DNA of 57,197 nucleotides, the filler included, from Dugesia japonica (taxonomy: Eukaryota), in NCBI GenBank assembly GCA_001938525.1. It is 5 parts of 5 records of this genome, joined end to end, with 100 filler letters (N's around TTAATTAATTAA, not from the genome) between each part and the next. Parts side by side here need not be neighbours in the genome. Positions count along the whole stretch, not along the records: positions 1 to 9,951 come from MQRL01607486.1; 4 more parts are not named here. One strand, 5' to 3'. Positions 500 through 57,197 of this stretch are shown one piece after another (positions within the stretch are counted from its first letter, which is position 1; every line of letters starts with the position of its first letter). The position numbers were made by a program, and so were the translations under genes. The notes below the pieces were generated by a model that ran no database searches, had not been told where the DNA came from, and worked only from the letters and a program-made list of their open reading frames with translations.

Positions 500-1439
500 A
501 CTTACTGGTTGGCTGAACCATTCCCCAGGGCAATTGGATCTCCAGAGGTTCATACACTCTTATCCAGTTCCATTGTACCAGTGTACGGTGAAATACATGA
601 ATAGATGTTAATAATTCTTTGCTGTAAATATCTGTGCATGGCATACATAATTTTTTGATGATAGATTGCCGAATTGGGGTTTAAATTGGTATTTTAATTC
701 GGAATCCATCACAGTCTTTCCTGAACCAATTTTCTGGTCTGTATAACCACATTCGTTGTTCTTTAATGGCCTTCAATGCATCTTTTAATACCATTTGTGT
801 TTGCTTAACACAATGTGCACACTTATCTTCCAATTGATGTACTGACAGCGAACAGGTTATATGGGTAATGTGATTACAGCTTTCTTCGGATCTTGGTGTC
901 CGGCTTCCCTGGTACTAGATCGTATAGCATGTAGTGTCTTTCATAGCCTTGATTGCAAGTGTTCGACGCATTTGATTATCTAAACCAAAAGATACAACTT
1001 TAATTTCTTGTGATATAGTAACTGATTTATCGTTAGTCATAGATAATGTTGTTTGGTCTTGAGATAGTCGATTAATTTTTGGTGTCTTAGCTATTTTAGG
1101 CATAACTACTTTATCTGAAAAATTCAATTCCTTGGTAGCTAGTGCAATATTTTTAGTGTCCGTGTTTTCGTTGCCGATTTTAGTATGAAACTCCTGACGT
1201 GAAACCAAGCTCTTTCATTTCTCTTTCTTTTCTTCGTTTGTCTGCATATTTTAATGCGCCATCTTTCAATAATCTCGTTATTTATTGCAACTCTGTTTCT
1301 ATCTTTTCATCGTCTTTTGGTTGCATGTCCGTTTTCAGTTCTGAATTTACATCTTTCTCCGTTAGTTTCCATTCCCCATCTTCTTCAGACTCAGCGTCCT
1401 CGCTGAGACTTCTTTTCCTTAATAATGATTCTAAACCAC
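500..1439 (-). pseudogene. Extension downstream of integrase: acidic/low-complexity linker plus second copy of an unknown Cys/His domain
   Basis: ORFs 915..1208 and 417..644 joined in frame by IKAMKDTTCYTI*YQGSRTPRSEESCNHITHITCSLSVHQLEDKCAHCVKQTQMVLKDALKAI...FHRTLVQWNWIRVYEPLEIQLPW. Confidence 0.6.
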
Positions 1440-2686
1440 TCCATGGCGGAGAGTCAACTGGTTGAGACCATAATACTTACCAGTCCCATACTATTAATAT
1501 CATATGGAAATTCTCAAAAGCTCGAGTGAGAGTTTCGTAATAAATACTGATACAACGTTCCATAAGGTGTGTATTTCGTCTTGTTCCAATGGTACTTGAA
1601 TTGTTAGCTTGTCATGCATTTTCTTACATCGTTTTCTACTGAGCTCGTCTTGTTGCAACAACCCAAGTCTGCGACCAGCGATTTCCCACAATGCTGATTT
1701 CAAAATTGATTGCATTTTCCGTATGCATGTAAGGCAACTTGCCTCGATTAGAGTTGGTGAGATTGGGCATGTTATCCGAGAGAAGTGGGCACAACAGTTT
1801 TCTGGTGCCGGTGTCTGTGTTCCTCGTGGGATTATAGGATATATTGTCGTGGTACCCAATGCTTTAACTCGATGGCTTAACTGGCTTAATACGAATACTG
1901 GGATTGATGATTTCCCGAGTATCATCATAGCTTGTTGTGATCGTAATGGGTAACTATGCGATATATTTAACTCCAGATTTTCTGATTTACGTGGCCTACC
2001 TGGCCCTCTATGTTCCGTCGCGGTGGTTGCAGTACTTGCGGTTGGTGCGATTTCTTCCGTCATTGCTGCTTTTTTGCATAGGTTGGCGTGGTATATTTTT
2101 TGTTTCTCTAATAGGTTTCCCTTCCTTCGAACTTTGAGATTGGTTTCAGTCACTTCGATTACTTCATATGGTCCTTGCCATGATCCTTTTAATTTCGATG
2201 TAGTGTCAACACAAATGTCTGGTAAATTGATCAATACTATGTCGCCCTTTTTAAATGAATGTTGCATTGCCGTTTTATCGTGCAAATCCTCATAGCTTTC
2301 GTGGTAAAATCCTACATTCTTCTTGGCCTGTTTCCATATTTTCAGCATAGTTTCGTTAAAATTTGCAGCAAAGTTTGTTTCATCCTGGTATTGAGTTATA
2401 GATAGCTTCCTACCATACATAAGGATGCACACTTATTCGATATGCGAATAGACATAGTTGGATATGTATATCCCATTTATTTTGTTCCTTTTGAGCATAA
2501 CTGGATAGCATATTGATCAAGGTTTTATTAAATCGTTCCGTCAGTCTGTCCGCTTTTGGATGATAAGGTGATGTCCGTAATTGATGTATCTTGAGGAAAC
2601 TTGATATTTCTGCCAGTATGTTGCTCATAAAACTTTTTCCTTGATCGGTCAATATCTTTTTGGGTATACCATATCTGGTGAAAAAT
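1440..2686 (-). pseudogene. Gypsy integrase (N-terminally truncated rve core, GPY/F domain), AT-hook and first copy of the unknown Cys/His domain
   Basis: RYGIPKKILTDQGKSF...TSPYHPKADRLTERFNKTL (D..E core); FKKGDIVLI...WQGPYEV (GPY/F); RGPGRPRK AT-hook. ORFs 2410..2709 and 1500..2432. Confidence 0.9.
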
Positions 2687-4200
2687 TGGAGTGAATTGCA
2701 CGCCTCCATTTAACCGTAACATTGAGAATTTCCGTAACATTGGTTCAACTCCCAATGCCATTCGTTAGGGAAATGTTATCTATGAACCATCTGTCATGAT
2801 GTATTGTGGTCCGAATACATTAGAGCAATTTATGATATTTGGTTTATAACCCAATGGTGATATTATTCGAGTAATTGGTTGTACATAACTTTTCTCATTG
2901 TTGTGGATGATTTCTATTTCATTATAACAATATTTTGGATTAGACGGAAACTCTGTGTCCACGGCCTTGCATTTGTTTAGGTACATTACTTCGCCTACTA
3001 CTCGACCAAATTGTCCTTTTTCTAGAGGAAGTAACGGACGACACAATCTGGATTTGTAACTGCCATTGCTAACTTTGTCTTCAGTATTTCCTTATTCAAT
3101 GTACAGTCATTCTGGATAAGATCGTGGTACATTCGTCCGATGGTATCCTGCATCCGATGGAATAAATTGTCTTTTCTATTATTTGCATATAGATGTAGTT
3201 TGATATCTTGGGACATCACTGCGACTTGCGCTGTTTTTATCTGATGTTCTGATACGAATATCCCTTTATAGTTTGTTTTGTATACTATTTGTTCACATTT
3301 AAACATAGAATTTCCTTTGATCAATCGGATGGTCTCATCCTGTTCTGAGGACATTAGCACCGTGGGAGTTGTGTGTCATTGCTGATTGTATGATTTCAGA
3401 CCTGATGTTATCGTTTCTTTAAAATTATCTATCCTATCCTTTAGATTACCCTCTTTTGGCGCTTGATCAAGAGGAACTATGGCTCGTTGTCCTTGGTATT
3501 CATTGAACATAGCTTCTTTTAGGTGAGCTAACCTGCAATCCTGATGGTCTACTTTGTATGTCAGTGTTGATGTACCGGTATTACACGATCCATCAGGTGC
3601 TTTGCAGTATGACCTTCCTTTCATAGTTAAATCCTGGGCATCGAAAAATGCTTCGTATTCCTTAAGCTCTACGGTATAAGTTTCAATTGCTACCGCATAT
3701 TGCCATACTTTTTCTCGTATCGTGTATGTACAATATTCACAGTTACCTTTATGTGAAGATATACTTCCTGCTGCTTCTATCAGCTGGTCGATTACATATC
3801 CTTTTTTGGCGATAACCTGAGTCCTATGTTTGATGGTAATTTTACCTGTTGTAAATCCTTCATCGTATTGTTTTCATGTTAGATGTACGGGATATCTCAA
3901 TGTTCTTGGATCGATTATCGAAGTATAACAGTGTTAACCAAGATGAAATATGAACGTCTTTGCCGTTACTATACATTTACGTACTTGGGCCTTATAATAA
4001 TCGGACTCTTGATACAGGTGGTAAATGGAATTATGACGGAGTGATATTTTCTCCGGGTTTGCGTCTGGACATTCCTCGATAAATACTAATGAGAATACTT
4101 CCTTCCCAACTTGTATCCCATCGCAGTCATATGCTAATATGGCTTCACTTCTGCCCATCATTAAGAATAATAAGAGTATTGTAGTGGTTAATGCTTGCCA
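2687..4200 (-). pseudogene. env: Chuvirus-like glycoprotein (class III fusogen) env, C-terminally truncated
   Basis: Hydrophobic signal LTTTILLLFLMMGRSEA then ILAYDC..FSL..IEEC; C..DGSC; DCTLNKEILKTKLAMA; GEVMYLNKCKAV...CYNEIEI...YVQPITRII...NCS..GPQY. These resemble chuvirus G-type retroelement envelopes. ORFs 3934..4644, 3376..3624, 3022..3360, 2780..3046. Confidence 0.8.
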
Positions 4201-7200
4201 TGAGTTTTGGCGAGGCCCACGTGTCCATCCATTCTCGATCTCATTTAACTGATCCCGTACAATCCTGATTACTCTAGTTGCATTTTCATGAGATGGCTGA
4301 GGCTTAGGGTATATGGGCTCAATAAACTTTTTCCATCTCCCATGCTGCTTTATCAATGGCACTATTTTGTTCTGCATTAGATCCACTATCGGTAATTTGC
4401 TGAGGATGAAGTTTTTTGACGGCTTGCTTCTAACAATTGATAAATGTGTTTGGTTAATCAAATGGGCTATGGATACTACTATCCTTCCTTTCGTTGGCGG
4501 ATCTTGTAATAACTCATACATTACTCCTTCTAAAGTTATCTCTTGTGCCATGACTCGTACCTTTAGTGGCAGGGAATTTCTTAATGGCTGCTTCGATTTC
4601 CTTAGCCTGTGGTCTGAGACCATTTGATAGTTGAAATTTCCCAATCCATATTTTTAGCTCTGTATACAACATTAGCAATAATTGCCGTATGACCACTTTG
4701 GTTGGCATGTCATCATCGTCGAATTTTCGTGGAATTTCTCTTGTGATACCGTTGCTAATCGCTTAGTTTGATGGTTTATTGATGTTGCTAATCGTTTTTA
4801 TTTTAATGCTTCCTTCTCCTCCGGATTTCCTGGGGGTTTTGTTCTCGGTCTGCCTCTATTGCGAGGTTCAGTNATTGTTTCTGCATCCACTNTGGTGCGC
4901 GTTGGGTTTGGTGGCGCTTCTTCCTCTTCTGTCTCTATAGGATTTTCCATTTCTAAATGGTGATTTGTATCTATTAAGTCGTCCATGACTGAAGATGGCA
5001 ATTCTTTTGCTATTCTACTTAATATTTGCGATAATGGTTGTTCTTCTAATGCATCTTCTTCGTCTAAATGTACTTTGCTAGGATCGTATTTCTTGCTTCA
5101 AGTTGGCTCTTTGGCTTTTAATTCCTCACTTTTTCTAGTTGGAGGTGAGTATTTTGTGATTTGTAACTCATTCTCGTCTTCTGTTAACTCGTCTGCTGAT
5201 GAAGATCCGAATATTTCACGTTACAATCTTGGCTTGTTTTAGGGGTTTCTTTTGGTTCTTGAGACGTTTCAATACTTCTTGATTGATCTGTGGTAGGTCT
5301 CAATATTTGGCTAGACCCTAGTTGTTTTTGGTGCTTATAGGCTTTCAACATACTCGATCACTCCCCCATTATTGGTCTTGTTTTGTCTGCTGCCTTGTAA
5401 GGGTCTCCTAATTCTGGAAAAATCCATAACGTATTGGGTTTAACTAAATTTATTTTCATTAGTCCAATTGGGGTGGTATCTCCCACTATTCCGTCTTCAT
5501 CCAGGAGTTTATAAGGTGGCTTAAATGGTAACTTGTCTCGTAAGTGCTTTATCGTGTTATTTACTGGTATCTTAATTGTGATTTTGTCCCCCTGCGGATT
5601 GATTATTCGGAATTTGACCTCTAATGGAGTGGTTTGTCCAATCTCGGCTTTCCATTATTTAACCAGGATTTTATTAAACTGAATTGGATCCCATATGTGT
5701 GACACTTTGACAGCCATGATTAATCGTCGCTGTTTTCTAAGATCATCTACCACCAGATCTTGTTGTAAGACTATATTCGATCGACGTATGATTTCTGGTT
5801 TTAATAACTTATCGCCTACTAGCAATTCGAATAATTTTGGTAAATTGTCTTCCGGCTTTTCATCTTTGAATGGGGTGTTGGTCAAAGCCACTACCATTTT
5901 CACTCGTTGTTTACTTAGTTCTTTTTTAGAGAGCTTGGCTCTTGCGAATACTAATGGGTGTATCTCTTCTACATAATTTTCCACTACTTCTCTGGCTTCC
6001 TGCTTCCATTTATTAATGTCAATATTTCTTCAGCATACTTCTGTCTAATCATGAGCCATTGATTCTCAATTTCCTCCGGTATTTTTAGCCCATCGTATAT
6101 GTTATATATATGTTATATTAATTATCTTATTATATTATTATTATATTAACGTATATATTATATTAATTATATGCATTATCATCTAATAAATCTCTCGAGG
6201 TAACTTCTCCTTCTCTATCTGTACTCAGTTAATCATTTCCTACACTTTACGCTACTACTTCTCTTGCCGGCATTTGCCGCATCTTTATCATGTTGCATTT
6301 ACCCTCTCTTCTCTCTAATTGTTGTTTGAGAAAATCGTTACGCGTCATCAATAACTGCTTCCTTTCCTCCTTTGTTAGTTTGTCTTTCTTTCCTAATACT
6401 GTGGAAAGTATCTTTATTTTAATAGGTTTTACTTCTTGTTTATATAGATATTCCATCTCTCTCATGATTTCCGATGCCGATCTTCCGGTTTTTGTTATCC
6501 ATACGTCATAGTCGATACCCGGGTGTTTATCCAATATTACAATTTCAATTTCTTCTCTTGGTTTTACCCCAAATCGTATAGATGTCTTTTTCTGGCATTA
6601 AAATCTACTATAGCACTTGGAGTACACACGTAATTATCAGTTATGCATGGATAGCCTGCTTGATTAAGTGCCGATTCCAGATCTTCTACCATTAATCCCG
6701 TGAGTGTCAGTTTCATGTTTCCATCTGGATTATATACCCATACTTGGAAATCTGATAATCCCTGGTTGGATATTACCCAATCATAATGCACTGGTAACCA
6801 TTCTGTCTAATCGCTTTCAAAATTAGTGACCAGTTTTATAACTTCTAACAACTCTACTAATCGATTGGTCAACTTAAAGTATACATTCCTCTTTATTGTA
6901 TCATGGAGTTTCTGAGTGGCTACAAGTATCTCAACAATTCGAGCTAAGGATAATCGGGATGCTTTATTTTGTTCCGAGTCGGGATAGTCAATTACTTTCA
7001 CCTTCTCAAATCGTTTTCGTAAGTAGTTTTGAGCCTTGGTGGGAACTATTTCTTTTATAAATGTTTCTTCGAGATTATGATATAACTCGTCTGTTTCTAT
7101 TTCTTGAATTGTAATTTGTGGCCTGAACACCAATCCCCAATTTATCAATTTGATTACTGTAGTTTCATGGGGTCGTGTCCCGTAATAAATTAAATTCCTA

Positions 7201-7613
7201 TCATCTGGAAGAATATTGATTCCTATATTACCTTTTTGCCATCTGTGTCTATTCCATTTTCCATTCCATTGTTGCTGATCGGTAAATGTTGGTAATTCGA
7301 GAAATGGGTTTACCGTCATACCTTTGATACTGTTTACTTCGCTCCATTTTATTTCGTTAAGTGCTTCTTTCAAGTGTCGTACTGTCAATCCCTTTAGTGG
7401 TAGTTTTAATCATTTCGGAATGACCTCTGGGTTATTATGCCATATATATTGAATTTCGAATTCATAATCTTCTATATGTTCGTAATCTTCTAACTTAGTT
7501 TCTCTATAAAGCTCGGCGATGTAATCCAATATTGTTTTCTGCCAGTTAGCTTTTACTTTTACGTGTACTTGTGGGTGCTGGTATAATTGAAGTAACTGAT
7601 TCATCACTCGTCT
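4201..7613 (-). pseudogene. Accessory polyprotein region between gag and env with about three ubiquitin-like domains and an AT-hook
   Basis: ORFs 7614..8057, 7410..7607, 6807..7388 and 6564..6791 share one frame separated only by single stops. Ubl-like segments at ~7110-7460, ~6530-6750 and ~5410-5625. RGRPR at ~4850. Confidence 0.6.
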
Positions 7614-9341
7614 TTATCCGGTGGTTGTCGTTGATGCTTCTATTGTCCTATAGATGATTTCGTTGGTCCACTCGAATTCTGGTGATGTAATCAGTATTCG
7701 TTTCCGAGTGTCTTCCATTTCGATAACCTCCGTTGTTTCATCATGTTGGTTATAAATTTGTCTATATGTTCTGACCATATTACATTGATTCTTGTGTGGT
7801 TCATTTAGCAAGTTTCTTTTTGCTAGTCTTTCCTGCTGTACTTGCAAGTCTTGGTTTTGCCACTTTAGCCAATCATTTTCCTGTTGAACTTTATGGTACA
7901 CGTTGTTGAAAGTACTTTGAAGCACTCCGTTGACTTGTCCCTTGTTTTGGTTTACTCGTTGCCTTAATCTCTCATTTTCCTGCATTAGATTATCCAAATT
8001 TGTAATCTGGTTTCGATTATAATTTGTTTGGATTTCGTTTGGACATTCTTTTGCCATATGCCCTCTCCTGTTACACTTATAACAGCATGTTTCTACATTG
8101 AGGTTGGTTCTCTTGCAGTAAGTACAGAATCGATTGTTGTTATTATTATTGCCTCTACTTCTTCAATCTCGGGCAATATGCCCCCGTCTTCCACAGGAAT
8201 CGCATTGTATATCTCTATTATTTTGGCAGTTATTTCGTGGTGCATTAAATCCTCCACCATTTCCTCGGGGGTAGTTAGGTCTATCATTCCTGTTATTCCG
8301 TTCTTGCCCTAGGGTCAGGGTTTTCATCATGGATTGTGTGTTAGGTATCAAATCCGATATCCGCGGTGTAGTTTCCTCTGTCTGTCCTTTTACTTTGAAT
8401 ATCCGTTCTGATGGTCTATCTGCTACAATTCGCAATGTGTCCAGAGCGTCCTGTAGAGTCACTGGCTTACTCAATTTTACCATTAGTTTGGCGTTCTCGT
8501 CGCGTAATTCATTTAAGAATATAGCTAACACTTAACTGTCTTCCAGTTTATCTCCTGAGGCTAATTTGCAGTGCCTTTTGAGTTCCATCATATAAGCTTG
8601 TGGGGTTTCCCCCCGCTGTTGTTTTTGCTTCCTCGTCCCAGCCACAGGTTTTGGCATACATTTCGTAATTTTGGATAAATTCATCCAACTTTTCTGGTTT
8701 TCCGCTAAAATATTCGCCATCGAATTTTATTTTCCACTCCGGTTGATGGTTTTCAGTTTTGGTTGTCATATTGAACTCGATTTTCGGATTTTTGTTTATT
8801 GTTGAGGGTGTCTCACTTCCTAAGTCTCCTGGTTTTATTAACAATGAGTCGATGTTTTCCTGATTATAAGTTGTTAGTTTGATGATGTCTGATTCCTCTA
8901 ATGTATCGCTTATTCTACTTGATCGGTTACTAACTACTGGGGTTTTACTGGAGGTTGTTTTCGGGTTAGTTTTGTTTTCTTTATAACTTGGACTACGGTT
9001 TGAACTGATGGTTTCTAATGTTTTGGTTCTGGATAAAGAGGTTGATTTGTCGTCTTCTGGTTTCTTGAGCAAAAAGTAAAGAAAAAATAAAGTGACGATT
9101 GTTTGGTTTTCTTTGATGACCTGTGTCGTGTAAGTTGGTTTTCCTTTAGAATTGAGCCTGGAGTAGATATTCCGGATGTATTAGACCTTGTAAAAGGTTT
9201 TCTATTTTCTGAGTCTGAATCTATTTTGTCCGAGTCCAGCTTGTTGGTTGCCTTTTGTTTTTCGGTTTTGGCTTTGTAATACTTGTATTTTAACTCTCTA
9301 GAATAAAAATTTACTTCTAATTGTCTTTGCTTAGGAGGCAA
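7614..9341 (-). pseudogene. gag: Retroelement gag (capsid-like region plus CCHC zinc knuckles)
   Basis: FSGKPEKLDEFIQNYEMYAKTCGWDEEAK; QRGETPQAYMMELKRHCKLA; CDSCGRRGHIARD; CYKCNRRGHMAKEC. Confidence 0.85.
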
Positions 9342-9409
9342 TCACTCATTTTCCTGATTTTAACTTACTTTAATATCATGCTGCTCCACCCTGTCATCAT
9401 AGCCCCATA

Positions 9410-9951: not shown

Positions 9952-10051
9952 NNNNNNNNNNNNNNNNNNNNNNNNNNNNNNNNNNNNNNNNNNNNTTAAT
10001 TAATTAANNNNNNNNNNNNNNNNNNNNNNNNNNNNNNNNNNNNNNNNNNNN
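9952..10051. other. Artificial contig-joining spacer (also at ~24558-24657, 35823-35922, 48282-48381)
   Basis: N-run, TTAATTAATTAA (stops in all six frames), N-run; four such ~100-bp occurrences. Confidence 0.95.
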
Positions 10052-11317
10052 CAGCAAATCATGTAAGATTAAAATTATGCACAGTAAATATAGTTTCACT
10101 ACACAATGTACTCAACCGGTTGCATGAATAATGTGAATATTATTCACATTTTCAATTTATATGGAATTTGGTTGTAGCTTCATTAAGTAACAATATGAAG
10201 AGCTCCTTAATTCAACAAATAAAAGAAAGACGCACAAATTTACTCAATGTCATAAAAAATCTTCATAAAGGAGATCAAGCCCAAAAATNATCTGAGGCTA
10301 GATATTATATCTGGTCGCTAACTAAACTAGCTTTGGTAAATTTAATTGTGTATTTTATCCTTTGGATGTTATCCTTCCCAGCTGAAACTACATTCTTACC
10401 ATTTTCAAGTGATGATGATGATGAAGAAACCATAATGTGTGAAGACTAACCTTTGACCTTGACATTACAGGAGCAGCTAAGCATGGCCATAAATAATGAG
10501 ATAAAAATAACAACAGCGCCAAAATAAATCGAAACGCTAACGATTACACAAAAATTGAAAAGAAATTTCTATATTTGAGGAAGACTGCACACGTAGTACC
10601 AACTTGAACTTGATAAACGATTTTCTTTTAACTGTTTTCTCATCTAGTAAAGAAGCTGAACGTGCTTCCTCTTCTTCGGAAATGCTATATATATTAAAAA
10701 TTCGATCGTTTTTGAATGACGGAACTTTAAGCAATTTGTGTTTTACAGGCTTATAAATCAATAAATATTTTTTATGTTTTTTCATTGTTTTTTAATTTCA
10801 AATGAATTGATTTTATATATTACTTGTTGTTTTCAATACCAGTATTCAAATTCTGGTCCGGTATTGGATGCTCAACTGATAATATTGATAAATAAAATAG
10901 TGACAATTTATTGNAAATATCCTGACAATATTTTCTAGAAATTATAATAAAATTTTATTCATTAAGTGTTTTGAAAATTTCATGAAATTCTGATTATTTG
11001 CCAGACAATTTTCAATTTTTGTTTCTACACAAGATGGTAAATAAATACCGTCATATCGAAAAATAAATAAAATATAATTAATTTGTAATACTATTTATAT
11101 TTTTACAATAAATTTAAACAAGAAATATTTGAAAATATCTATAAAAAAGAGAAATTTATTTCATTTATNNNNNNNNNNNNNNNNNNNNNNNNNNNNNNNN
11201 NNNNNNNNNNNNNNNNNNAGAGAAATTTATTTCATTTATCGTTGCAAAATTGAAATAATTTTTACTATAAATATTAATATTAATTGGAAATTATATTGAA
11301 ATTCTCTTTATTTATAG

Positions 11318-11545
11318 AAATTTCAAAGTTACTGTTACTAGACAAGATAAAATAACCATTGATATGGATGTCAGTTCAGAGAATACTATCCAAAGTTTAA
11401 AAGAGAATATCCAAAGATCATGGAATAAACCAATAGAACAACAAACTTTAATGTTCAGAGGTGAAAAACTGGAAAATAATAAAAAGTTATCTGATTATGG
11501 AATTGTTGAGAAATGTTTAATTTCTTTATTTCCAAAAGTATCAAA
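11318..11545 (+). CDS. Host exon encoding one ubiquitin-like domain
   Basis: tttatAG acceptor and GTgag donor; 228 bp, phase 2-2; NFKVTVTRQDKITIDMDVSSENTIQSLKENIQRSWNKPIEQQTLMFRGEKLENNKKLSDYGIVEKCLISLFPKVS. Confidence 0.85.
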
Positions 11546-12500
11546 GTGAGATTTATTTCTATTTATATATTTTTATTTATTTATTTTGATTTANNNNNNN
11601 NNNNNNNNNNNNNNNNNNNNNNNNNNNNNNNNNNNNNNNNNNNTATTTCCAAAAGTATCAAAGTGAGATTTATTTCTATTTATATATTTTTATTTATTTA
11701 TTTTGATTTATTTATTTGATTTATTTATTTAACTTTATTTATTTNNNNNNNNNNNNNNNNNNNNNNNNNNNNNNNNNNNNNNNNNNNNNNNNNNNNNNNN
11801 NNNNNNNNNNNNNNNNNNNNNNNNNNNNNNNNNNNNNNNNNNNNNNNNNNNNNNNNNNNNNNNNNNNNNNNNNNNNNNNNNNNNNNNNNNNNNNNNNNNN
11901 NNNNNNNNNNNNNNNNNNNNNNNNNNNNNNNNNNNNNNNNNNNNNNNNNNNNNNTCTATTTATATATTTTTATTTATTTATTTTTATTTATTTATTTAAC
12001 TTTATTTGTTTTCAGTTTATTTATTATTATTTTTGGAAAACGAATTAAGATACGTTAACAAAATATATAAAATCTATTGAGTGCTTTCTAACCTCCGGTC
12101 GTGGTGAGCGGATCAATAAATGATATATTTTAATTTCTCACTCACTTGTGTGATATTTTCGAAGTAATTCACTGAAAATCTCAAATATCTTTCAATGATT
12201 TTCATTATGGTTGATGCGAGATAACTTTGCCGATAATTTTCGTAACAAATAGTGAGTTTGTGGTGTCTCCTTTACTGATTCCGTATTTTTTTTCTTGTAT
12301 AGTGTGCTCCAATGATCCTCGTAATGTTTTCAATTTCAAGAGCTCTATTTGGGCTATTATCTACTTATTATTTGATTAGTATCTAACCTTTCTTATTCGA
12401 CTGTGAATTTGTAAGCTTTTTATCAATAGTTAAAGTTGTTGTTTGAATCACAGTTGAGATTGGACCTTGTAAATATGATATTGTCCAAAAAAGGATAGTT

Positions 12501-14559: not shown

Positions 14560-15020
14560 ATGGAACAATATTCGAAAAACGATTTGTGGAAAAACTAAAT
14601 TGTGCATTTTTGATCGGCCATCTCCTCAAACTGTTACTGAATATTTGAAGATGTGTTTCCAATGAATTCGATATCTGAATCGCGAAATGATGTAGATTTT
14701 CATCAATGAATCGCAAACTGAATAACTGGATTTGAATGACACCTTGTTATATGTACAAGTGAAAGTAGTTGATAAAGTTGGAAAGGATTTGATTGAAGCT
14801 TCTGATGTAATAACTAACAACTATAGGTTTCATTCTCTATTTAGTGATGTCTTTCTGTCATTTAACCATTTTAAAATAGATGGTGGAAATAGAACTTATA
14901 TTCAAAAATCCTTGATTGAAACTATATTAAATTACAATGTAGACAGTAAGAATTATTTTCTTACAGCAATGGGATATGGAGTAGAAGCAGATAGAAAAAA
15001 ATCGATTAAATGATCTAAAC
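14560..15020 (+). pseudogene. Polinton major capsid protein (PY/hexon-like), 5' part
   Basis: CGKTKLCIFDRPSPQT...LDLNDTLLYVQVKVV...FHSLFSDVFLSFN...IETILNYNVDSKNYFLTA. Confidence 0.85.
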
Positions 15021-17819
15021 GGTTAGTTACTGATAAACTTTCTGAAAAGTGAATTAAAGTCAACAAAATTTTATTTATGAAATTTCAAATCTTCAAATCT
15101 TAAAAAACTATTTTTGAAAGGTTGAATATTTAAACAAAGTTGTTTAAATATTTTTTAAAAAAATTCTTGAAATCTTTTTCAGCATTTTGTTCTTAAAACT
15201 TTAAATTTTACATCCCCCTCGATTAAAAGAATTTTTTAAACTTTTCTACGTTCCTTTCTAGCACTTTTCCATTTGTATTTCGTAAACGATTTCTTCTCTC
15301 ACATCCTTTCTTTCTTTCTTCCAGTCGCATGTCATTGGTGTATTCCACTGCGAATTACATTTTCTTATAATATTAGAGTTTGCTAAATTTTTTATGGCCG
15401 TATCTATTTTTTCTTCTAGAGTCATGGGTTGTCTCCAAGGCTTCGTATTTATTGGATTACCCTTTGTCACTATTATGTGTTCTGCCACCCTTGTACATCC
15501 GAAATCCCAGTTATCTGCTATGAATACTCGACGTTGTTCTATTACCTTTTCTAGTTTCTCGTTTCGTTGTTTCATCAAAATTCTTAAAGTTCTCTGTTCT
15601 CTTTCAACATCCTCAATTTTCCAACCAAACCTTGCGTCTATTTTGCAGATCCACTGTTCATTCTCATGCTCCTTTGTTTCTTTCTTTAAACGGTATCAAA
15701 ACTGGCGTTGCATGTCTATTCCTCCAACAAGATTCGGACTCATTTCTTTCACTACGGTAAATTGCACTGTTTCCGATCTCCACTTCTACATATATCTTGC
15801 CCGCAAGGTTCATTCTACTATTATTTGCACATTTTAACACGTCATCAGTTTCTCTCAGCTTGACATTTGTCAGACTTCTAAATATATTTCGGCTCATCAC
15901 GTTTATCTTTGCACATGTGTTCAAAAAGGCAGTCTTTATATCTTCCTTGAATTCTTACTTCTACACTGGGCCTACCTTGCATTCTATCTTAATTTATTTG
16001 TACTTGTTTATTCTCTTCTAATATCATTATTTCTCGTTTCTTTCATTATCTTGATATCTGTATTATACATATCTCTGTAATGTCTCTTTTAAAACGCATA
16101 AACTTTTCTGTCTACTCTTTCCTCTTTACTTTTATCTTTTATACTATTAATTAAACTACTTTTACTATACATATGTATATAGCGATCTGGATTGTTTTTA
16201 GTTCATTGCTCTAATCAACTCGACTTTGGATGGAGCTTGTCTAATTGGGGTGTCTTCTCTATAGCTGTTGGTCTCCTCATCGTAATAATAAATATTATCT
16301 CCTCTCTTTATGTACTCCTCATCTTCCTCTACCATTGCGTTTACATATCTATTGCCAGCTTTTTTTCCTGAATCCATTATTGGCTGATGTCCTCCCACTT
16401 TGTTTTTGGAATCTGTTATTATCTTCATATTTTCTGTTTGTTTCATCTCTTTGTCTGTATAGTGCTGCTTCGTTTCTTTGTTCGTTATTCTGCTGTCTTC
16501 TCTCATTAGTCCATTTACCTCTTTTCTCCAAATTAGTATAACATTGTTCTGTATGATGTCCATTTTTTCCACTTGAACATCTAATTTTGTCACAATTTCT
16601 TCTTATATGATTCTCTGATCCGCTTGCGTAACACATTCTTTTCTTTTCGGGACAACTTCTGTTGATATGACCTATCTTTTGACATAAACAACATGTAATT
16701 TCTTTTTTAGCTTCACGTTGAGTTCGGTTAACTCCTGAGAAACGTTTTTTTGCAATGCCTCTTTTTACTGCATTGGTATAACTCTCTATCGTATTTATAT
16801 TGTCCGTTTCTTTTAGGTCATCCTTTAGTTCATCATTTGTTTTTATTATTTCAAATATCTCTTTCGAGTTGGCTAATTTGCCTCCTTTAATTTTTATTTG
16901 CATCCTTTAATCGCGGCAACTATTATATATTAATTCTTTTGTCATCTCTTCTTTTTCTAGTTTGTGTGCAAAGATTTTATCGANCAGTGTTAAAATATTT
17001 TTCTTGTACACATAAACGTGTTCATCCGTTCTCTTGTGTTTTAAAGCTTCCTCCAAATCTTGTATGAGAGTAGTCTTTTTGTGGAACGCTTTCCTCAGTC
17101 GGTCCTCAAAATCTAATAATTCATCTTGGCATTCATATGCTTCTCTTAANNNNNNNNNNNNNNNNNNNNNNNNNNNNNNNNNNNNNNNNNNNNNNNNNNA
17201 TCGCGGCAACTATTATATATTAATTCTTTTGTCATCTCTTCTTTTTCTAGTTTGTGTGCAAAGATTTTATCGACCAGTGTTAAAATATTTTTCTTGTACA
17301 CATAAACGTGTTCATCCGTTCTCTTGTGTTTTAAAGCTTCCTCCAAATCTTGTATGAGAGTAGTCTTTTTGTGGAACGCTTTCCTCAGTCGGTCCTCAAA
17401 ATCTAATAATTCATCTTGGCATTCATATGCTTCTCTTAATTTTCGATCAATTAAGCCAATCACCAAGAGGTTTTTATCCTTTTTCTTTACACCAATACAT
17501 TCGAAGTATTTAGTGCAAGCATTGATAAACTGTTCAATATCGTCACCATGCCGGTAAATTCCAGGGTGTAGGGCTTCTCGAATGAGGTCCATTGAAGCGT
17601 TTGTCGCCATGTTAGTTACTGATCAACTTTCTGAATAGTCCATTAAAGTCAACAAAATTTTATTTATGAAATTTCAACTCTTTAAATCTTCAAAACTATT
17701 TTTGAAAGGCTGAATATTTAAACAAAGTTGTTTAAATATTTTTTAAAAAATTCTTGAAATATTTTTTAGCATTTTCTTCTTCAAACTTTAAATTGCAATT
17801 TCAATTTTTAATCCTTACA
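15021..17819 (-). mobile_element. Internally deleted Gypsy LTR retrotransposon inserted in the Polinton MCP
   Basis: LTRs 17610-17819 (TG..CA on minus) and 15021-15212; PBS-like TGGCGAC at 17603-17609; PPT ~15213-15228; 5-bp TSD TAAAC/TAATC; gag with CCHC (16349..17610), protease-like FLNTCAKINVM and the start of RT (SQWNTP). Confidence 0.9.
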
Positions 17820-20230: not shown

Positions 20231-21299
20231 TTTGAAATAATGAATTAAAGATTCAGTTTATATAGGTTTTAGTACGGGTTTGTATTAATTAAATACATTG
20301 ATACGTTTAAACAATTGATTCTAGAACATTTTTATTGAAATTATCTAAAAATTAAATTAGTTTAAATAAAATTTAATTAATTTTAATTATAATGGTTAAA
20401 TTTATTTAATATGAATTATTATAGTTAAATTTACTGATTTTTCAATATAACTATTTATGTATAAGTTTTGGTGATTTTTAAGCTTGTTATTCGTACTCAC
20501 CGTAAAATTGTCTGTCGAATAGTATCAATTTCGATAAATTCTNNNNNNNNNNNNNNNNNNNNNNNNNNNNNNNNNNNNNNNNNNNNNNNGGCTGTACATA
20601 TTCGTTAGGAAGCATTTTTACCGAGATGATATTTTAACTTTGTACAGTCAATTTTTCATCTTGAATAAAATAATACCAAATTTGAGTCCATAGCTGTTAT
20701 CTGCGCACAGAATTCTGAGCACTAAACTCTAAATTTTTAAATTTTTTCACCACCAAACTTCATTTATTTCATCAAGTATTAACTTTGGCGATTTTAGGTT
20801 AACATATTTGGAATCAGCAAAAAGTACTCTATCGAATATACATTTTCTTGACCTATTTTAAGAAGAAAATATTTTTTCGAACAAATCCTGTGCAAAATAC
20901 TGGGAAAACCAAATATTATCGGGGTAAAATTACACAGAAGTCATTACAATTTTTTAAATTATATAGAAGTCACCAAAAATTTTATTGAAGTCACCGAAAA
21001 TTTTCAAAAATTGCATAGAAGTCTATGAAAATATAACAAAGTACTGATGTGTGTTTGTTCATTTTTATAAATTATGATCAAATATTCCATGAGAAACATA
21101 AATGCATTTGCAAATTTTTCATAATCTTTTTAAAAGAAATTTAATCTATTTAAAATTTGTAAGTAAATAATTAATTCATTTTTTACATTTTAAAGTGCGA
21201 ATATCTCTACTTATGCACCAAACTGCTTTGAAAACATGACAGATGCATTTTTTATATCATTACCATTCTAATGATATCAAGTTTGATGCCTATTAATTA

Positions 21300-22905
21300 A
21301 GAAATGGTACCAAAACTCCATTTTTAAAATATAAAGATATATTTGAGAGAGGTTCAAAATCTGCGAAACTTTATGGACTTCCTAAAGTTCATAAGAAAGA
21401 TGTTCCTATGCGTCCTGTTTTATCCTTGATAAAAATAGCTCAATATAAGGTTGCCAAACTGTTGAATAAGCTTATTAAGCCTTTACACAGATCTGAATTT
21501 GAGTGCAAGAATAGTTTTGAATTTTCATCTTTAATTTCTCATTATCCATTGGCTAGTAATGATTGCTTTACGGTCTCATTTGGTGTTGCAAATTTATTAA
21601 CTAATATTCCATTAAAAGAGACAATACATTTGTGTTGTGAAATATGGAGTGATTTTAATCCTAATAAATCTTCTTTAGATGATATAGCGTTTCATGATCT
21701 TTTAACCTTTGCAACATCAAATTTTCAATTTCTTTTTAATGATGAATGGTATAGACAGATTGATGGTGTGGTGATGGGATCCACATTAGCTCCAACATTA
21801 GCTTCTATTTTCTTGTCTAAATTAAAGAGTAAGATTAATGATTATTCTTCTGTTAAACCTCTAGTTTATAAACGTTATGTCGATGAAATTTTTCTTAATT
21901 TTGAAAATCACTCTCAAGTACATCTGTTTTTGGAGTATATGAATAACTTGCATCCAAATATAAGTTTTTCGGTTGAAGAAGAGATCAATTCAACTATTAC
22001 ATTTCTTGATTTGCTTATTGAAAGAAAGAATACTTCATTTGAAACAGAGATATATAGAAAGAAAACTGATACCGAGTTTTTTACTAATTCTGGCAGTTTT
22101 TATGACATAAAATATAAAAGTAATATGATTAAAGGACTAATTCATCGTTCTTGGTCTCTCTTNTCTACTTTAATCAAAGCAGACAAGAGTCTTAAAACAT
22201 TAATTGACTTACTTCATAATAATAGGTATCCTAAATTGTTTACGGACAAATTAGTTTATGAAACTTTAATTAAACTTAATAGTGACTTGTTTCGTGTTGA
22301 TATATCTGAAGTTGTAAAAACAGATCCTAAAATTGTTTTATCTTTACCTTATTCTGAGGGCTTTAAAAACTTTCGATTGAAAATGCTCTTAAGAATATTT
22401 TAAATATAAAGTTGGTATCTCAATCTCATAAGGTTATAAATATGTTTAATAATAAATCTATAACTCCTTTAGGCTTGTGCTCTAATCTGGCATATCAATT
22501 TAAATGTAAAGGATGTAACGTCACATACATTGTAGAGACTTTCCGTCATCTCTGCACCAGAGTTCAAGAGTATAGTCGAAATAGTAGTAATAGTAATATT
22601 GTTGAGCATTGGAGAAAATGTAGAAAATCAATATGGTGTTCTGATTTTAAAATCCTGTACAGTGGATTTAATAATTATTGGGAGAGAGTGATGTGAGAAG
22701 CTTTGTTGATAAGGGTATTAAATCCTAAAATTAATGTTCAGTTGACAGATTCAACATCGCTCTTAAAATTATTTTATTGATATTTTTCATTAAGATTGCA
22801 CAATTGAAATTCTATAATCATTTAAACTTTGTAAAAAGTTTGTTTTAATATTCTTTAATTGCCTGATGACGACGGCTATTCCATCGAAATTGATCGCAAA
22901 TAAAT
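21300..22905 (+). mobile_element. Penelope-like retroelement (RT plus GIY-YIG endonuclease), 5' truncated
   Basis: LYGLPKVHK..VPMRPV; QIDGVVMGSTLAPTLA; KRYVDE; ITFLDLLI; YRKKTDT; AYQFKCKGCNVTYIVET.RHLCTRVQE; terminal hammerhead. Confidence 0.95.
22859..22900 (+). ncRNA. Type I hammerhead ribozyme in the Penelope terminal repeat
   Basis: TTGC-CTGATGA-C-GACGG ctatt CCATC-GAAA-TTGA-TC-GCAA. Confidence 0.8.
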
Positions 22906-24007
22906 ATTTTTAAAAAATTTAAAAAATTTTTTTTCCTGTGCCGTTTTCTTGTATTGCATACATTTTTCGATACCAATCATTTAGACAATGTATAGGTAGT
23001 TTGTAATTGCCTAGTTAACAGTATCAAATTTAAGTCTTGGTGATAAAATCTTGAGGTTGGGCACGGTTTTTAAACTTAAAACCTTTAAATATTTAATTAC
23101 TCGTCACCTGAGATAGCAGTTATGTTCATCAAGGTTTTACGAGTCTAACGATAAAAAATCTTTTATTAGTTAATGTATATACTTGTTTTAATAGAGCTTT
23201 TTAAAATTGATGAATTTAGATGTTTCAGTGCGCCAATATCTACCTACTAGAGTGTTGCTCAACTTTCCCACGAAGGAAGCATTTTTCATCATAAGTACTT
23301 TATGAAATGTATAGATTGTTTTCAAGTATCATCTTAGTGATGGTGGTTTCAACTCATAAAATTGTAACCGCCCACCATAGAGCCAAATATNNNNNNNNNN
23401 NNNNNNNNNNNNNNNNNNNNNNNNNNNNNNNNNNNCTTTATAAGTGAGATACATTCTACTTTTAATTCACTATCACATCGTATAAAAATCTTGATGAGTG
23501 TAATGGAAAAGTTTTGATGGAGACGGATTTTTTAAAATTTTAAATCTTTAATAAACTTTTACCCTTACATTTGACTAATATTAAAATACCTTCACTGTAT
23601 TCATCATTTAATTGCGCATCCAACAATATCAAGTTTGACCAGAAAACACGATTTTAAATGGACTTTGATCTATAAAATTGATATGTACCTTTAGCCGTCA
23701 TGTTGAATGGGAAGGAGTCATTAGACAAATATGCTCGAGCTATCTCGAATAGGGTGGTTCGAGTTTCCAACTTTATGCACATCTGATAATATTTTGTTGG
23801 TATGATTGATAATTGTATCTTAAGTTCCAAAAAATTAATTTTTAGACTGGTTGTAAAATCTGGAAAATCAATATTAACTATTTAAAATTTTTAAATATTT
23901 CTTATTAATTTGTAACAAAGTAAACCATTGATTTTTGATTTATTAAATAATTGATACGTACATGTATATCATTTTTAGTTAAATATTTTATGTTTAAATT
24001 TATTTAG

Positions 24008-24235
24008 CAATGAAATACAAGTTATTGTTTATGTCGAGTCTGGTCGAAATANNNNNNNNNNNNNNNNNNNNNNNNNNNNNNNNNNGAATTTAAAATCTAA
24101 AATTCAACAAAAGATAAATATTGAAAATACCTACCTAACATTAGTCTATCAAGGTGAATTGTTGGATGATGACAAGACAATTAATCATTACGAAATTGAA
24201 ACATGTTCAGTTATTATTGCTCATCGCACCATAAG
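24008..24235 (+). CDS. Second host ubiquitin-like exon (probably same gene as 11318-11545)
   Basis: tttAG acceptor and AG|GT donor; 228 bp including an N-run; phase 2-2; NEIQVIVYVESGRN...NLKSKIQQKINIENTYLTLVYQGELLDDDKTINHYEIETCSVIIAHRTI. Confidence 0.8.
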
Positions 24236-26109
24236 GTTTCATTTAATATTTTGTATTAATTTTATAAATTTTTATTATTGGGTATTCAGTGTAGATTTTN
24301 ACTGTCTGATTTTTGTCTATCCATTTTATATGGAATATAATTTCAAAATAATATATGATAATAATAATAAAATGAAAAGTGCAATATTTTAAAATTTTTA
24401 TTTATAAAACATGTTTTGGATAAATATGTATTCATTATCAGTTACTGTTGTAAATCAAGAAAGAAAACTGTTTATAAACGGGCCAATAAAACCTGTTGCG
24501 CAATCAATTCAATAAGATTAAAATTTATAAGTGAGTATAAATAAATTTAGCTCCTTCNNNNNNNNNNNNNNNNNNNNNNNNNNNNNNNNNNNNNNNNNNN
24601 NTTAATTAATTAANNNNNNNNNNNNNNNNNNNNNNNNNNNNNNNNNNNNNNNNNNNNTTGTATTAAAGTTTTAAAACAAAATGATTGCCAGACTGATAAT
24701 ATTTTTCCGGCTTTGGATAGAGTCACATAGAGCATCAATTAGGCCACAATAGTATCATATCGAAAAGTAACTAATTTTGATTTTATTACGCAATTTGAAA
24801 TACAATTTGAAAGCATCTTTAAATAAATTCATATACAATTGAAATTCTGTTATATAACAAGATGTAATAAATATATACGAATCTGTGATGTCAATTTCAT
24901 CGCTATTCTGTTCTTTTGAAATAAAATAAACTCTGTACTAAAATCAGCTTCATAGCAAGATCATTTTTAGTCCTATGTGTGATTTAATTTTTGAGCCCTT
25001 CATATATGCAACTGAAAAAAATTGTTTACAAATTATGTTTCTTCGATATTCAAACATAGAAAATCAATATTATATATCGATATATTNNNNNNNNNNNNNN
25101 NNNNNNNNNNNNNNNNNNNNNNATTTTGTGCAAAGCTCCATGAGAAATACATTTTGTAACATTATTACTATATATCATTTTAAAAATAATTAAATATTCT
25201 ATTTAATTTATAAAAATAGAAATAATAATATTTTGAATTATTATAAATTATTAAAATATTGAAACCTTAAAATCTTTACCTTTGATGCTTTATTTCACCT
25301 GCATTGTTACGGTAACAGGTGAAATGTTTAATGACAATTAATAATTTTTGATTAATATATTATATTCCATAAATTTTGAAATATTTGTAAAAATATAATT
25401 ACTTTGTTTTCTATTTGTTTACTTTACATGAATGATTGATGTTTGTTTATGTTTATTGTTAATTTCTTTTCTAAATGCACGTAAACAATTTGACATTGTG
25501 ATGTTTTTGAAGAAAATTTAAAAAAAACAATTGATTTATTNNNNNNNNNNNNNTTTATTGATTGTTCTTTTAATTAATAGAAAATATTTTTATTCTTCAT
25601 AAATTCCATTACCCACATAACAAATTTTGTCTCACTCTAATAAGATTTCAATTATTTCTTAATTGCTGTACACACAGTTATTCCGACTCGGCCATTGAAC
25701 ATGAAATTCTCTTTCATTTTAAATAATAATAAACCAGTAAAATTAATTTTTATAAAGAAAATTGTTTTTTAAGTTGCGTTTATAACATTTGTTTGTTTTT
25801 TTTTTCTCAGAAAAATGCTATTTTTTAATTGTCCAATATTTATTAATCTTTGCTTTTATTTCAAAAACTAATATAAATTGAACACTATAATTAAATGACA
25901 AATTGAGTAATTTTTTTTTGTATTTATTTTCTTGCTATCTGATAATTAATTAATTTCGACCACATTCAACTTCATCGCTGTGAAAATTTTTTTTTCAAAT
26001 TTTTTGTTAATTTTGCAATTTCTTTGAAAAAAAAATAAAACAAATTAATGAACATTGAATTCATTAAAAAAATTCNNNNNNNNNNNNNNNNNNNNNNNNN
26101 NNNNNNNNT

Positions 26110-44399: not shown

Positions 44400-45818
44400 T
44401 TCAAACATTACTTATATGGGAAATGATTTATCCTTAGAACAGACCATAAGGCTATAACTTTTATGCTAAATACCAAGAAGCCGATCACATCACAGTTTCA
44501 AACCTGGATTAATTATTTGAGCAGTTTAGATATAAANNNNNNNNNNNNNNNNNNNNNNNNNNNNNNNNNNNNGGATATGTTGTCAAGGAATGAATGCAGT
44601 ACATTTGCACAATGTCTAATGTCACATGAAGATCCAAAAAGTGGAAAATTAAAAACAAGGATGTTAAATACAGCAGATATTCAAGAGAAACAAGGCAATT
44701 TTGGTGAGAATGATGAGGGAACACGGATACCTGATGATAAAGTAGAAGAGGTTATAATGATGATACACCATCTTTTGTGTCATGCTGGAGCAGAAAAGNN
44801 NNNNNNNNNNNNNNNNNNNNNNNNNNNNNNNNNNNNNNNNNNNNNNNNATAACAGAAAGCTAAAGTGTTGACAACAAAAATGACACAGCCAAAAGGTTTG
44901 AGTTGTTATTTATAGATGTGTGTGGACCACTGCAGGAGACGAAGGGTCGAAAAAGATATTTTCTCGGTATAATAGATCAATGCAGTAAGTATATAGCCTT
45001 GATAGCAATGATAAAACAAGATGAAGATTCCATAAGGAAAACAATAATGGAGTGCATATTAAAGTTCGAGTGTCCGAGAGAAATGAGAGTTGATTGCGGA
45101 AGAGCATTTGAGCATCAATTAATGAAAGATTTTATAGCTGAACATGGAATTATCCTCAGAATTTTGAGTCCGTATCATCACTTATGGACAAATCGGGAGG
45201 CAGTTTAGGACTATGCCAGATTTGATAAATGCGACACTTAAAAAAAGGAAAACCTCAGATTGGGCTGATGTATTATCGGAGACAAAATTTACCTTGAATG
45301 CTACAAAACAGAAGACTATCGGGAAAAGGCCTGCTGAAATCATATTTGGAAAGAAAATAAGCAGAGAAAAATGGTACCAAACAAATACTCAGAGTGAACA
45401 TAGAGCAAGATGAAACTAACCAAAAGACAATTCACGGTTGGTGATGAGGTCTTAGAAACAAGAATGTTTTGAAGGACCCTATAAGATCAAAGGAAATGTT
45501 CCCAACATACGTTATACCCTGGAAGATAAAAACAAGAAAAGTCTCGAAAGAAACGTAGAGAAGATTACAAAATTTCTTAAAAAGGGGAATGTGAGTGTGT
45601 TTTGAAAAGCGAGTTAAAATTTTGTGATTGGTGATCATTTTTCTTAAAACATGTTATTTAAAAAGATTTAAACAAAAAGATTTATATAATAAATTAAAAT
45701 TTTGAATGAACGATTATTTGGTTTTAAATTTTGAATGACGATTTAATAATAAAGTAAAATTTTTAAATAACTTAAAATAAATTTTAAATATTTTGAAAAA
45801 TGATCACCAATTAAAACA
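44400..45818 (+). mobile_element. Gypsy 3' half: RNase H end, integrase, PPT and 3' LTR (45590-45818)
   Basis: LRTDHKAITFM; HHLLCHAG; FIDVCGPL...IIDQCSKY; VDCGRAFE; AAAGGGGAA|TGTGAG...AAAACA. Confidence 0.9.
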
Positions 45819-55051: not shown

Positions 55052-56712
55052 TAGGTAAATCTTCATTGGTAATTCATTTTGCAAATCATAATTAATATTT
55101 TGAGACATCATTTATTTTACTACTTCAATACATGTTTCATAATAAAAATAATATAAAAATACAAGAATTTCAATATTAATATTCAGATAACTTAATTTCT
55201 ATTGGATGAGATTATTAATTGATATATTTTTTCCTCATATCCCTCTTCTTAAGAAATTTACTAAGTTTTTCCACATTTCTTTCTAATCGCTCTCCGTTTT
55301 TCTCCTTTTACCGCATACCGCCTTTCAATTATTCGTTAAGGTCCTTCAAATCTGTCTTGATTTTAATTTCTTGTTTATACCTTGATGAGTACAACATCGC
55401 TCACTTTGAATTCTCATTTATTAATCACGTATAAAATGTTTTCTTTAGTTCTATCTGAAACGTCTGACTCGTACCACTTTTCTCAGCTAATTTTCTTTCC
55501 AAAATAGATCTCAGTCGGGCTCTTTCCTTTCGTCTTCTGTTTTGTTGGGTTTATTGTAAATTCTATTTCTGGTAAAAGATCTGCACAATCTGTTGTCTTT
55601 CTTTCCTAAAGTGTTACATTAATTAAATTCCGAATTTTCCTGAGCATTCTTTCAATTTGTCCGTTTGCATTATGATGATAGGGTCTCGAAAAGCAAAGTT
55701 TAATATCTAGCTTCAGTGCAAACTCTCTAAATTCAAAAGCTTTTCTACAAACTAATCTCTCTCGAATATCCAAATTTTTACACTCACTTTTCAAAAATAG
55801 CTTTTCGTATTGTTTTTTCGTCTTGTCTGGGTAATGCTGTAAGAACCAGATATTTACTGTACTGGTCAATTTTTCCAAGAATGTATTTTTTTGTCCACTT
55901 GTTTTCCGCACTGTCGCACATATATCTGTGAATATCAGTTTAAATAAATTGGTAGCTTCTAAACTCTTTGTCTTCTCTTTAGTTGCTGTTGTCACTACTT
56001 TCGTCTTCTGACAAATTTCACAACTACAAACTGTCTTTTGTAATTGGCTCCACAAATTCTTTGCAATATATTTCTTTCTCATATATTCGTGCACTTATTC
56101 AACTCCTGGATGACATAATAATTTGTGTATTTCTTCTATTGTTTCACGTAGTTTGCCATCCGGAAATTTCATTTTCTTGACTAAATCTGTTTCCTCAGAA
56201 ATGTTTAAAAGATCTTCTTTTTCTTTTTCAATTTTTTTCAATATTCTCGTTTTAATCTTCCCTTTCTAAGCTTGTTCATTTGACATTTGACATTGTACAC
56301 ATACCTCACATCTTAGTATAAATAACATATCTGCATTAGCATGTTGATATCCTTTTCTATATTCCAAAACCATATCTAAACTGCTCAAATTATTAATCCA
56401 TGTGTGAAATTGTGACACAATTGGTTTCTTTGTTGTTATCATAAAAGTTAGAGCCCTATTATCTGTTCTAAGACTAAATCTTCTGCAATAAAAGGGATTA
56501 TTATTGAGTGTGATCCATAGGCAACAACTCTTTCTCTTCCTTCTTTATCTCTCTGGGACAATACGGCTCCAATTGTATCAAACTGGCATCCGTATCTAAT
56601 ATAAATTCTTTGTTTATTTCCGGAAAACACAATATTGGTGCATTCATTAGAGATTTTTTCAGACCCCTAAATGTATAGCTTATTTCATCTGTTAATTCTA
56701 ATTTCTTGTGTC
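55052..56712 (-). mobile_element. Gypsy pol (RNase H, integrase), PPT and 3' LTR (55052-55237)
   Basis: FILDTDAS..IGAVLSQ; LRTDNRALTFM; C.ICQK; PYHHNANGQIER; AAGAAGAGGGATA|TGAGGAAA. The LTR matches 53379-53567 in inverted orientation. Confidence 0.9.
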
Positions 56713-57197
56713 TGCCCATAAAATGCATAAATTTCTTGTAATATTATCTTAAAAAATATCAAGACTGCCCATATCTTGTAATAAAATCTTAAAAAATATC
56801 AAGATTGCCCATAACATGCATAAATATCTTGTAATATTATCTTTAAAAATATCAATACTGCCCATACTTGTAATAATATTTTAAAAAATATCAATACTGC
56901 TCATATCTTGTATTAATATCTTAAAAAATATCAATATTGTCCATAACATGCATAAATTCCTTGTAATAATATCTTTAAAAATATCAATACTGCCCATATC
57001 TTGTAATAATATCTTAAAAAATAACAAGACTGCCCATAACATGCATTAATATCTTAAAGAATATCAAGACTGCCTATAACATGCATAATTTTCTTGTAAT
57101 ATTATCTTAAAAAATATCATGATTACCCATATCTTGTAATAAAATCTTAAAAAATATTAAGACTGCCCATAACATGCATAAATTTCTTGTAATATTA
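56712..57197. repeat. Satellite with alternating ~39- and ~53-bp units (~92-bp higher-order repeat)
   Basis: TCTTGTAATA..ATCTTAAAAAATATCAAGACTGCCCATA with or without ACATGCATAAATT. Confidence 0.9.

Follow-up and report, generated by a model that had tools for sequence, protein, structure and literature searches.

The minus strand at the start of the window carries a decayed Ty3/gypsy retroelement that runs from gag through an accessory region, a Bcl-2-like domain and an internal signal peptide to a class III envelope and then the second half of an integrase, in a copy that has likely lost 3-7 kb and is likely kin to the planarian Burro and GAG-ENV-POL errantivirus elements; we put the probability of this reading as a whole at about 0.85. 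By the window we mean the whole 57,197-nucleotide stretch of Dugesia japonica DNA that was analysed, filler included. The element spans ~9349 to 505, and its parts, placed by Pfam matches and by reading of the sequence, are as follows:

8040..9349, minus strand: gag remnant, with an N-terminal region without detected homolog, a capsid-like part and zinc knuckles
4720..8039, minus strand: accessory region, interrupted by stop codons and frameshifts; no family match
4320..4710, minus strand: putative Bcl-2-like helical domain, from a profile of relatives; split by a frameshift at ~4550-4600
4141..4194, minus strand: predicted internal signal peptide, from a hydrophobic core and a likely signal-peptidase site
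2684..4140, minus strand: class III (gB-type, chuvirus-G-like) envelope ectodomain, ~2/3 of the family profile
2683..2686, no strand: env/integrase join in the middle of the integrase core, from comparison with the polyproteins of relatives
2070..2683, minus strand: Ty3/gypsy integrase, second half of the core and C-terminal domain, with a frameshift at ~2420
505..2069, minus strand: post-integrase extension and downstream ORF remnant; no family match

Stops and frameshifts are numerous throughout, and this copy is unable to function and dead. Pfam searches of the element show no protease, reverse transcriptase (RT) or RNase H in the stretch that separates gag from env or in that from env to integrase. 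An LTR pair was looked for in the window without success, and neither a primer-binding site nor a polypurine tract could be convincingly located there. On its 5′ side the element ends at the gap at 9952-10051, and on its 3′ side it adjoins a Polinton-like fragment. The order of gag, accessory region, env and integrase given in the first-pass annotation agrees with the Pfam matches, but the accessory region is longer than the ~1000 residues proposed there. The further suggestion of one giant polyprotein is borne out by the single ORFs of relatives; the window copy alone cannot show one open frame, because it is interrupted by stops, frameshifts and a simple repeat.

The family to which this copy belongs is highly repetitive: 7,921 contigs from one DNA run aligned over 4.9 kb, for the most part with no more than 95% identity. 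A raw RNA run carrying the same species label contributed 201 aligned reads out of 13.6 million, mostly on the Polinton-like fragment and mostly at less than 90% identity, and these say nothing on expression.

A class III envelope

Four stop-to-stop pieces between 4190 and 2780 match PF24664 (Monjiviricetes_fusion) in order, covering profile positions 5-85, 116-209, 246-358 and 366-439 of 653, and the main env frame read with X at its stops matches the same profile with an E-value of 1.4e-34. Five stops interrupt the env frame, which also shifts near 3040, and the membrane-proximal part and transmembrane segment (TM) are missing from this copy. A structural model built from the window's own frame with 64 sequences has a mean pLDDT of 78. 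Among viral models searched with Foldseek a chu-like virus G ranks first (E 1.9e-22, TM-score 0.47, 16% identity), and in the PDB a herpesvirus gB does so (E 6.5e-9, with a low global TM-score of ~0.27). VIA-align places four gB chains at the top (Z 10.5-8.9), the best of them with an rmsd of 5.9 over 272 residues, followed by vesiculovirus G and thogotovirus GP, and the env sequence profile also matches the gB central helix (E ~0.004). As modelled, the window envelope has a class III, gB-like fold, and the chuvirus-like class III identity proposed in the first-pass annotation is upheld both by the Pfam match and by the Foldseek matches to chu-like G and herpes gB.

With chu-like virus glycoproteins as its top structural matches, the envelope could be thought to be an independent endogenous chuvirus glycoprotein gene inserted in a gypsy element. 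However, it is only 15-18% identical to chu-like viral proteins versus 26-43% to retroelement polyproteins, and the Bcl-2-like unit, signal peptide and env share a frame, as they do in relatives, so that we find such an insertion hardly credible. The closest env relative (P0006, 42% identity) ends just past a GG[ILV]Y motif, near the point at which the window env breaks; this is probably a coincidence.

Gene order in natural relatives

A full HMMER search for env relatives yielded 163 proteins at E ≤0.001, many of the best ones long, whereas a word-index search for longer relatives had returned none. Pfam scans were run on 19 of the 163 and then on five (one new). Env precedes pol in 11 of 11 long proteins or ORFs with an env and a protease or RT match (P0007, P0008, P0010, P0011, P0012, P0017, P0026, P0028, P0029, P0156 and L001), and L002, P0014 and P0023 are consistent with this order; env after pol was seen in none of the relatives scanned. 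Five of these proteins (P0008, P0012, P0017, P0029 and P0156) carry env, protease (PR), RT, RNase H (RH) and integrase (IN) in a single chain and P0026 carries env-PR-RT-RH, with gag or zinc knuckles upstream of env in P0011, P0028 and P0029. Of 12 proteins mapped, 11 have a TM segment after the ectodomain and the twelfth (P0013) ends before it, and the single ORFs of relatives reach 4,844 aa. The gag-X-env-pol order put forward for the intact element is therefore what the natural relatives have, with env ahead of PR-RT and in none of those scanned downstream of pol.

The 3,703-aa ORF of the metagenome locus L001 runs gag/knuckles-env-TM-proteases-RT-RNase H-integrase, and the two sequences, ORF and window, align collinearly over gag, two of the knuckles, env and integrase; the L002 ORF agrees with it but is open at the 5′ end. 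JGI metagenomes gave three env-relative loci from 236 pattern matches, and no env relative was found in GTDB genomes or IMG/VR. The lineage may reach past planarians into small animals represented in metagenomes.

Several features of the relatives are recorded here as observations in their own right. Both L001 (12085-13473) and L002 (10617-12107) have a downstream exonuclease ORF (PF00929, RNase_T) that is absent from the window element. P0156, P0011, P0008 and L002 have several aspartyl-protease-like repeats per polyprotein (seven stretches in P0156), and this group has extra hydrophobic segments after the integrase. P0012 (HBK71150.1), an env-PR-RT-RH-IN polyprotein, is deposited as a protein of a Flavobacteriaceae MAG and is likely animal DNA in a bacterial bin.

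The env/integrase join

The rve match at 2709-2410 covers profile positions 57-102 of 102, that is, only the second half of the integrase core, and this half integrase is all that remains in the window element of a gypsy-type pol. In alignments with relatives the env similarity extends to ~2685 and the integrase similarity starts at 2688-2676. The sequence GGVQF at this position was considered as the GG[ILV]Y motif of the family and rejected, since env breaks ~10 residues before that motif. Measured against relatives, between ~1,100 (P0012) and 2,400 (P0156) codons are missing, or ~4 kb against L001, comprising the end of env, its TM, the protease(s), RT, RNase H and the N-terminal half of the integrase. 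These are the segments that had been proposed as deleted at ~2686, and relatives carry them in between.

Two lines of comparison favour a common family on both sides of the join. The window integrase is 43-58% identical to seven env-bearing polyproteins, relatives that have PR-RT-RH-IN, and the env and integrase identities to these seven rank alike (hand-computed Spearman coefficient ~0.86). In both 8-row trees, one for env and one for integrase, the window groups with an identical set of five relatives, and P0017 and P0029 are set apart from these, the integrase tree being built from 89 columns only and with the window on a long branch. Since the env and integrase pieces of the window both sort with one set of relatives, an internal deletion of 3-7 kb is the best reading of the join near 2684.

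These identities also bear on whether the two segments come from different elements, the circumstance named in the first-pass annotation as contrary to its reading. In the more radical form the integrase would belong to an unrelated gypsy element and env would stand in its ordinary 3′ position in an upstream gag-pol-env element. The abruptness of the join, the presence of other gypsy remnants in the window and the varying read depth along the element all fit with this. However, in the window gag and env are not separated by a pol, env comes first in every scanned relative with both env and pol, and two other integrase remnants in the window are only 25-30% identical to the L001 integrase, as against the values given above; we consider an unrelated integrase very unlikely.

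A milder form, in which ectopic recombination, or faulty assembly of a high-copy repeat, has brought two copies from one family together at the join, would leave the gene order of the family unchanged. It gains from the repetitiveness of the family, from the window being a gapped assembly, and from there being no contig that bridges the join among the 24 pieces listed of 17,536 in the DNA runs, although with so few of the pieces listed a missing bridge proves nothing. Against it, no N gap lies at the join, the pieces are ordered and oriented as they are in intact relatives, and the gag capsid is without ~50 residues near 8622, a second internal deletion that makes such losses a habit of this copy. 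A two-copy origin of the join thus appears unlikely to us.

Gag and the accessory region

Pfam identifies two zf-CCHC knuckles on the minus strand at 8207-8163 and 8084-8043, and a third, degenerate knuckle can be read from the sequence at 8126-8085. Upstream of these is a capsid-like stretch at ~8710-8400, for which the profile match is weak and which also rests on the comparison with L001.

The accessory stretch that follows comprises ~1,280 codons with stops and frameshifts, and includes an AT-rich simple repeat at 6096-6182 and, by eye, an acidic stretch with an AT-hook-like motif at ~5100-4800. It has no family match in Pfam, no PDB sequence match and no homolog among proteins, the search covering lengths of 360-1148 only; its similarity to P0015 is 24% over 95 aa (E 0.026). 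Because the accessory region is without a detected homolog, continuity from gag to env in the window copy rests on collinearity and strand. There may be a ubiquitin-like unit at ~5620-5430, where a Ubl profile matches 5618-5531 weakly (E 0.74 or 0.039), and one other profile of relatives gave no match; in the relatives themselves Pfam ubiquitin matches are weak. The relatives' Ubl profile detects a ubiquitin-like ORF elsewhere in the window well (at 11325-11511), but 5618-5531 only weakly. That ORF occupies 11271-11549 on the plus strand (Pfam ubiquitin, E 9e-15), and a similar ubiquitin-like stretch lies at 23979-24392, also on the plus strand, with a weak Ubl-profile match near 24,000-24,200.

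A Bcl-2-like domain next to the signal peptide

Directly upstream of the signal peptide is a Bcl-2-like domain that was absent from the first-pass annotation. Its C-terminal part (4596-4320) was tested and matches a profile of relatives with an iE of 1.4e-7, a value that is partly circular, and its N-terminal part was assigned by eye. With an alignment that includes the window row Bcl-xL is the top PDB match (E 0.008), and three relatives (P0049, P0009 and P0013) match Pfam Bcl-2 below its cut-off. The window's 84-aa half of the domain alone gave no PDB sequence match and no Bcl-2 fold match; the fold comparison was made on the natural relative P0044 rather than on the split domain of the window. 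For the P0044 model, with a mean pLDDT of 55 and ~80 across its core, Bcl-2-fold chains stand in the top 32 matches, the best with Z 8.8 and an rmsd of 3.5 over 109 aligned residues. This Z is below the level of ~13 at which the tool warns of helical bundles, so that Z alone is not decisive, and it is the uniform ranking that we count as decisive. The unit was detected in 5 of 18 long relatives, four of them in the training set of the profile and only L002 outside it. A domain seen by eye in L001 was dropped, the profile search being negative there. Judged by these weakly scoring comparisons, a BCL2-like motif appears to precede env in the window, as it does in Burro elements.

The hydrophobic core of the signal begins at residue 154 of the 239-aa frame 4653-3934, and the 153 residues ahead of it accord with the proposal of an internal hydrophobic signal at least 150 aa into an open frame. 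A likely signal-peptidase site is predicted three residues ahead of a conserved [YF]DC motif, which in 16 of 16 natural relatives examined is likewise preceded by a hydrophobic core, 126 to 1,341 residues into the frame. In the window and in seven relatives the hydrophobic segment is 28-59 residues downstream of a BH2-like motif. It is like the tail anchor that cellular Bcl-2 proteins carry, but with a longer linker. Conceivably, then, the env signal peptide, once cleaved, doubles as the C-terminal membrane anchor of the upstream Bcl-2-fold protein, a suggestion that we make tentatively and think on balance doubtful. If it were true, a retrotransposon would have gained a virus-style tail-anchored apoptosis inhibitor, with Gag tethered next to Env; and if the Bcl-2-like domain were a working membrane-anchored death inhibitor, a retrotransposon would be interfering with host apoptosis much as large DNA viruses do. 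The idea of apoptosis interference was raised in a 2019 review, which in its discussion of these elements leaves it as a suggestion (PMC6431247), and the texts or supplements of Grohme 2018 and Sacco 2022 may already include the Bcl-2/env adjacency.

A proposed scheme for the intact element

The topologies imposed by signal anchors and stop-transfer segments are established rules of membrane insertion, and a working scheme can be proposed on that basis. An intact element would be translated as one long polyprotein on the ER, with Gag and the accessory domains remaining cytosolic until the internal signal opened the translocon and threaded the class III ectodomain into the ER lumen. Signal peptidase would cut ahead of [YF]DC and free the N-terminus of env, leaving the hydrophobic segment on the upstream product. 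Because the env TM would stop transfer, protease, RT and integrase would come out again on the cytosolic side, still joined to the env tail until cut free by the protease. Gag and Pol would thus both be tethered to the membrane beside Env, an arrangement that would favour budding of enveloped particles able to enter cells by class III fusion, and the Bcl-2-like domain could blunt host cell death. Intact single-ORF relatives such as L001, P0029 and P0156 open this membrane threading of a gag-env-pol product to ordinary tests.

Flanks and other mobile-element remnants

A fragment at 123-505 on the minus strand with a match to an adenovirus-type C5 protease (E 0.004, below the cut-off) has very high contig depth; we take this fragment to be likely Polinton/Maverick, and it adjoins the 3′ end of the element and probably truncates it. 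After the integrase a Cys/His-rich unit of ~100 aa occurs twice on the minus strand, at 1868-1563 and 953-648; the two are 35% identical and have no family match. Because contig depth over most of 653-1630 is far below that over env or integrase, this region suggests a subfamily-specific add-on. Other mobile-element remnants in the window, at 15258-17622 (minus), 44400-45208 (plus), 55500-56743 (minus), 21297-22403 (plus) and 14726-15013 (plus), comprise three gypsy-like pieces, an ORF for a Penelope-type-like RT (by eye) and a Polinton-capsid-like piece (by eye) without a Pfam match.

Comparison with known elements

The layout was implied to be new, but the same order has been published both for Burro (PMC6431247) and for the GAG-ENV-POL elements (PMC13524379). 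As described by Arkhipova and Yushenova (2019, PMC6431247), ORF1 of Burro, a giant gypsy element of planarians, encodes a three-knuckle Gag followed by a Ubi2/SUMO-like motif, BCL2 and env, then pol; the env region matches mononegavirus fusion proteins, with PR next to it. The same account calls Burro the first case of an in-frame env between gag and pol, and notes decayed Burro fragments in Dugesia japonica. Its single ORF, with env in frame, has ~4,900-5,100 aa, and its size (a total length above 30 kb) is given in PMC11410931. With these descriptions of Burro/GYPSM1 the window element shares three CCHC knuckles, a BCL2-like motif directly before env, an env with mononegavirus-type fusion matches, the gag-env-pol placing (in frame in its relatives) and high copy number, and possibly a Ubi/SUMO-like unit upstream of BCL2. 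The MATH, BIR, ankyrin and dUTPase-like domains of Burro have no Pfam match in the surviving, decayed pieces of the window copy, from which 3-7 kb are missing. Burro exceeds 30 kb and has LTRs, whereas the window copy is deleted and dead, the likeness being to Burro as it is described. We consider it likely that the window element belongs to the Burro-type group.

GAG-ENV-POL elements with a gB-type env are reported from Nematoda, Bryozoa and Platyhelminthes by Chary and Hayashi (2026, PMC13524379), including nine from flatworms, six of them from Schmidtea, with 1-215 intact copies; the terms 'Bcl', 'polyprotein' and 'Burro' are absent from the main text of that paper. The gag-env-pol order and gB-type env of Smed_errantivirus_1-6 are common to the window element, which has the gene order of the gB-type Ty3/gypsy errantiviruses. 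An alignment of its env with the printed Smed_errantivirus_6 row needs no gaps and has ~73 of 180 residues identical by hand count (~40%), within the 31-64% range of the Schmidtea pairs displayed (PMC13524379). Because it is near-identical to none of the six printed rows, the window element is probably another family or comes from another species. The DNA is AT-rich and the nearest printed env is from Schmidtea, both of which fit a planarian host.

More distant parallels are cited in the same paper (PMC13524379). The nematode non-canonical ERVs of Sacco et al. (2022) likewise carry env before pol in a metavirus, in another host group, and the mosquito BEL/Pao elements of Dezordi (2020) carry chuvirus-like glycoproteins of the same class III env family, whereas the window integrase groups with Ty3/gypsy PR-RT-RH-IN polyproteins. 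By itself this copy adds little, the layout and the type of env having been published; it is a dead copy of a published kind, and its use lies in flagging a high-copy family that may not yet be listed.
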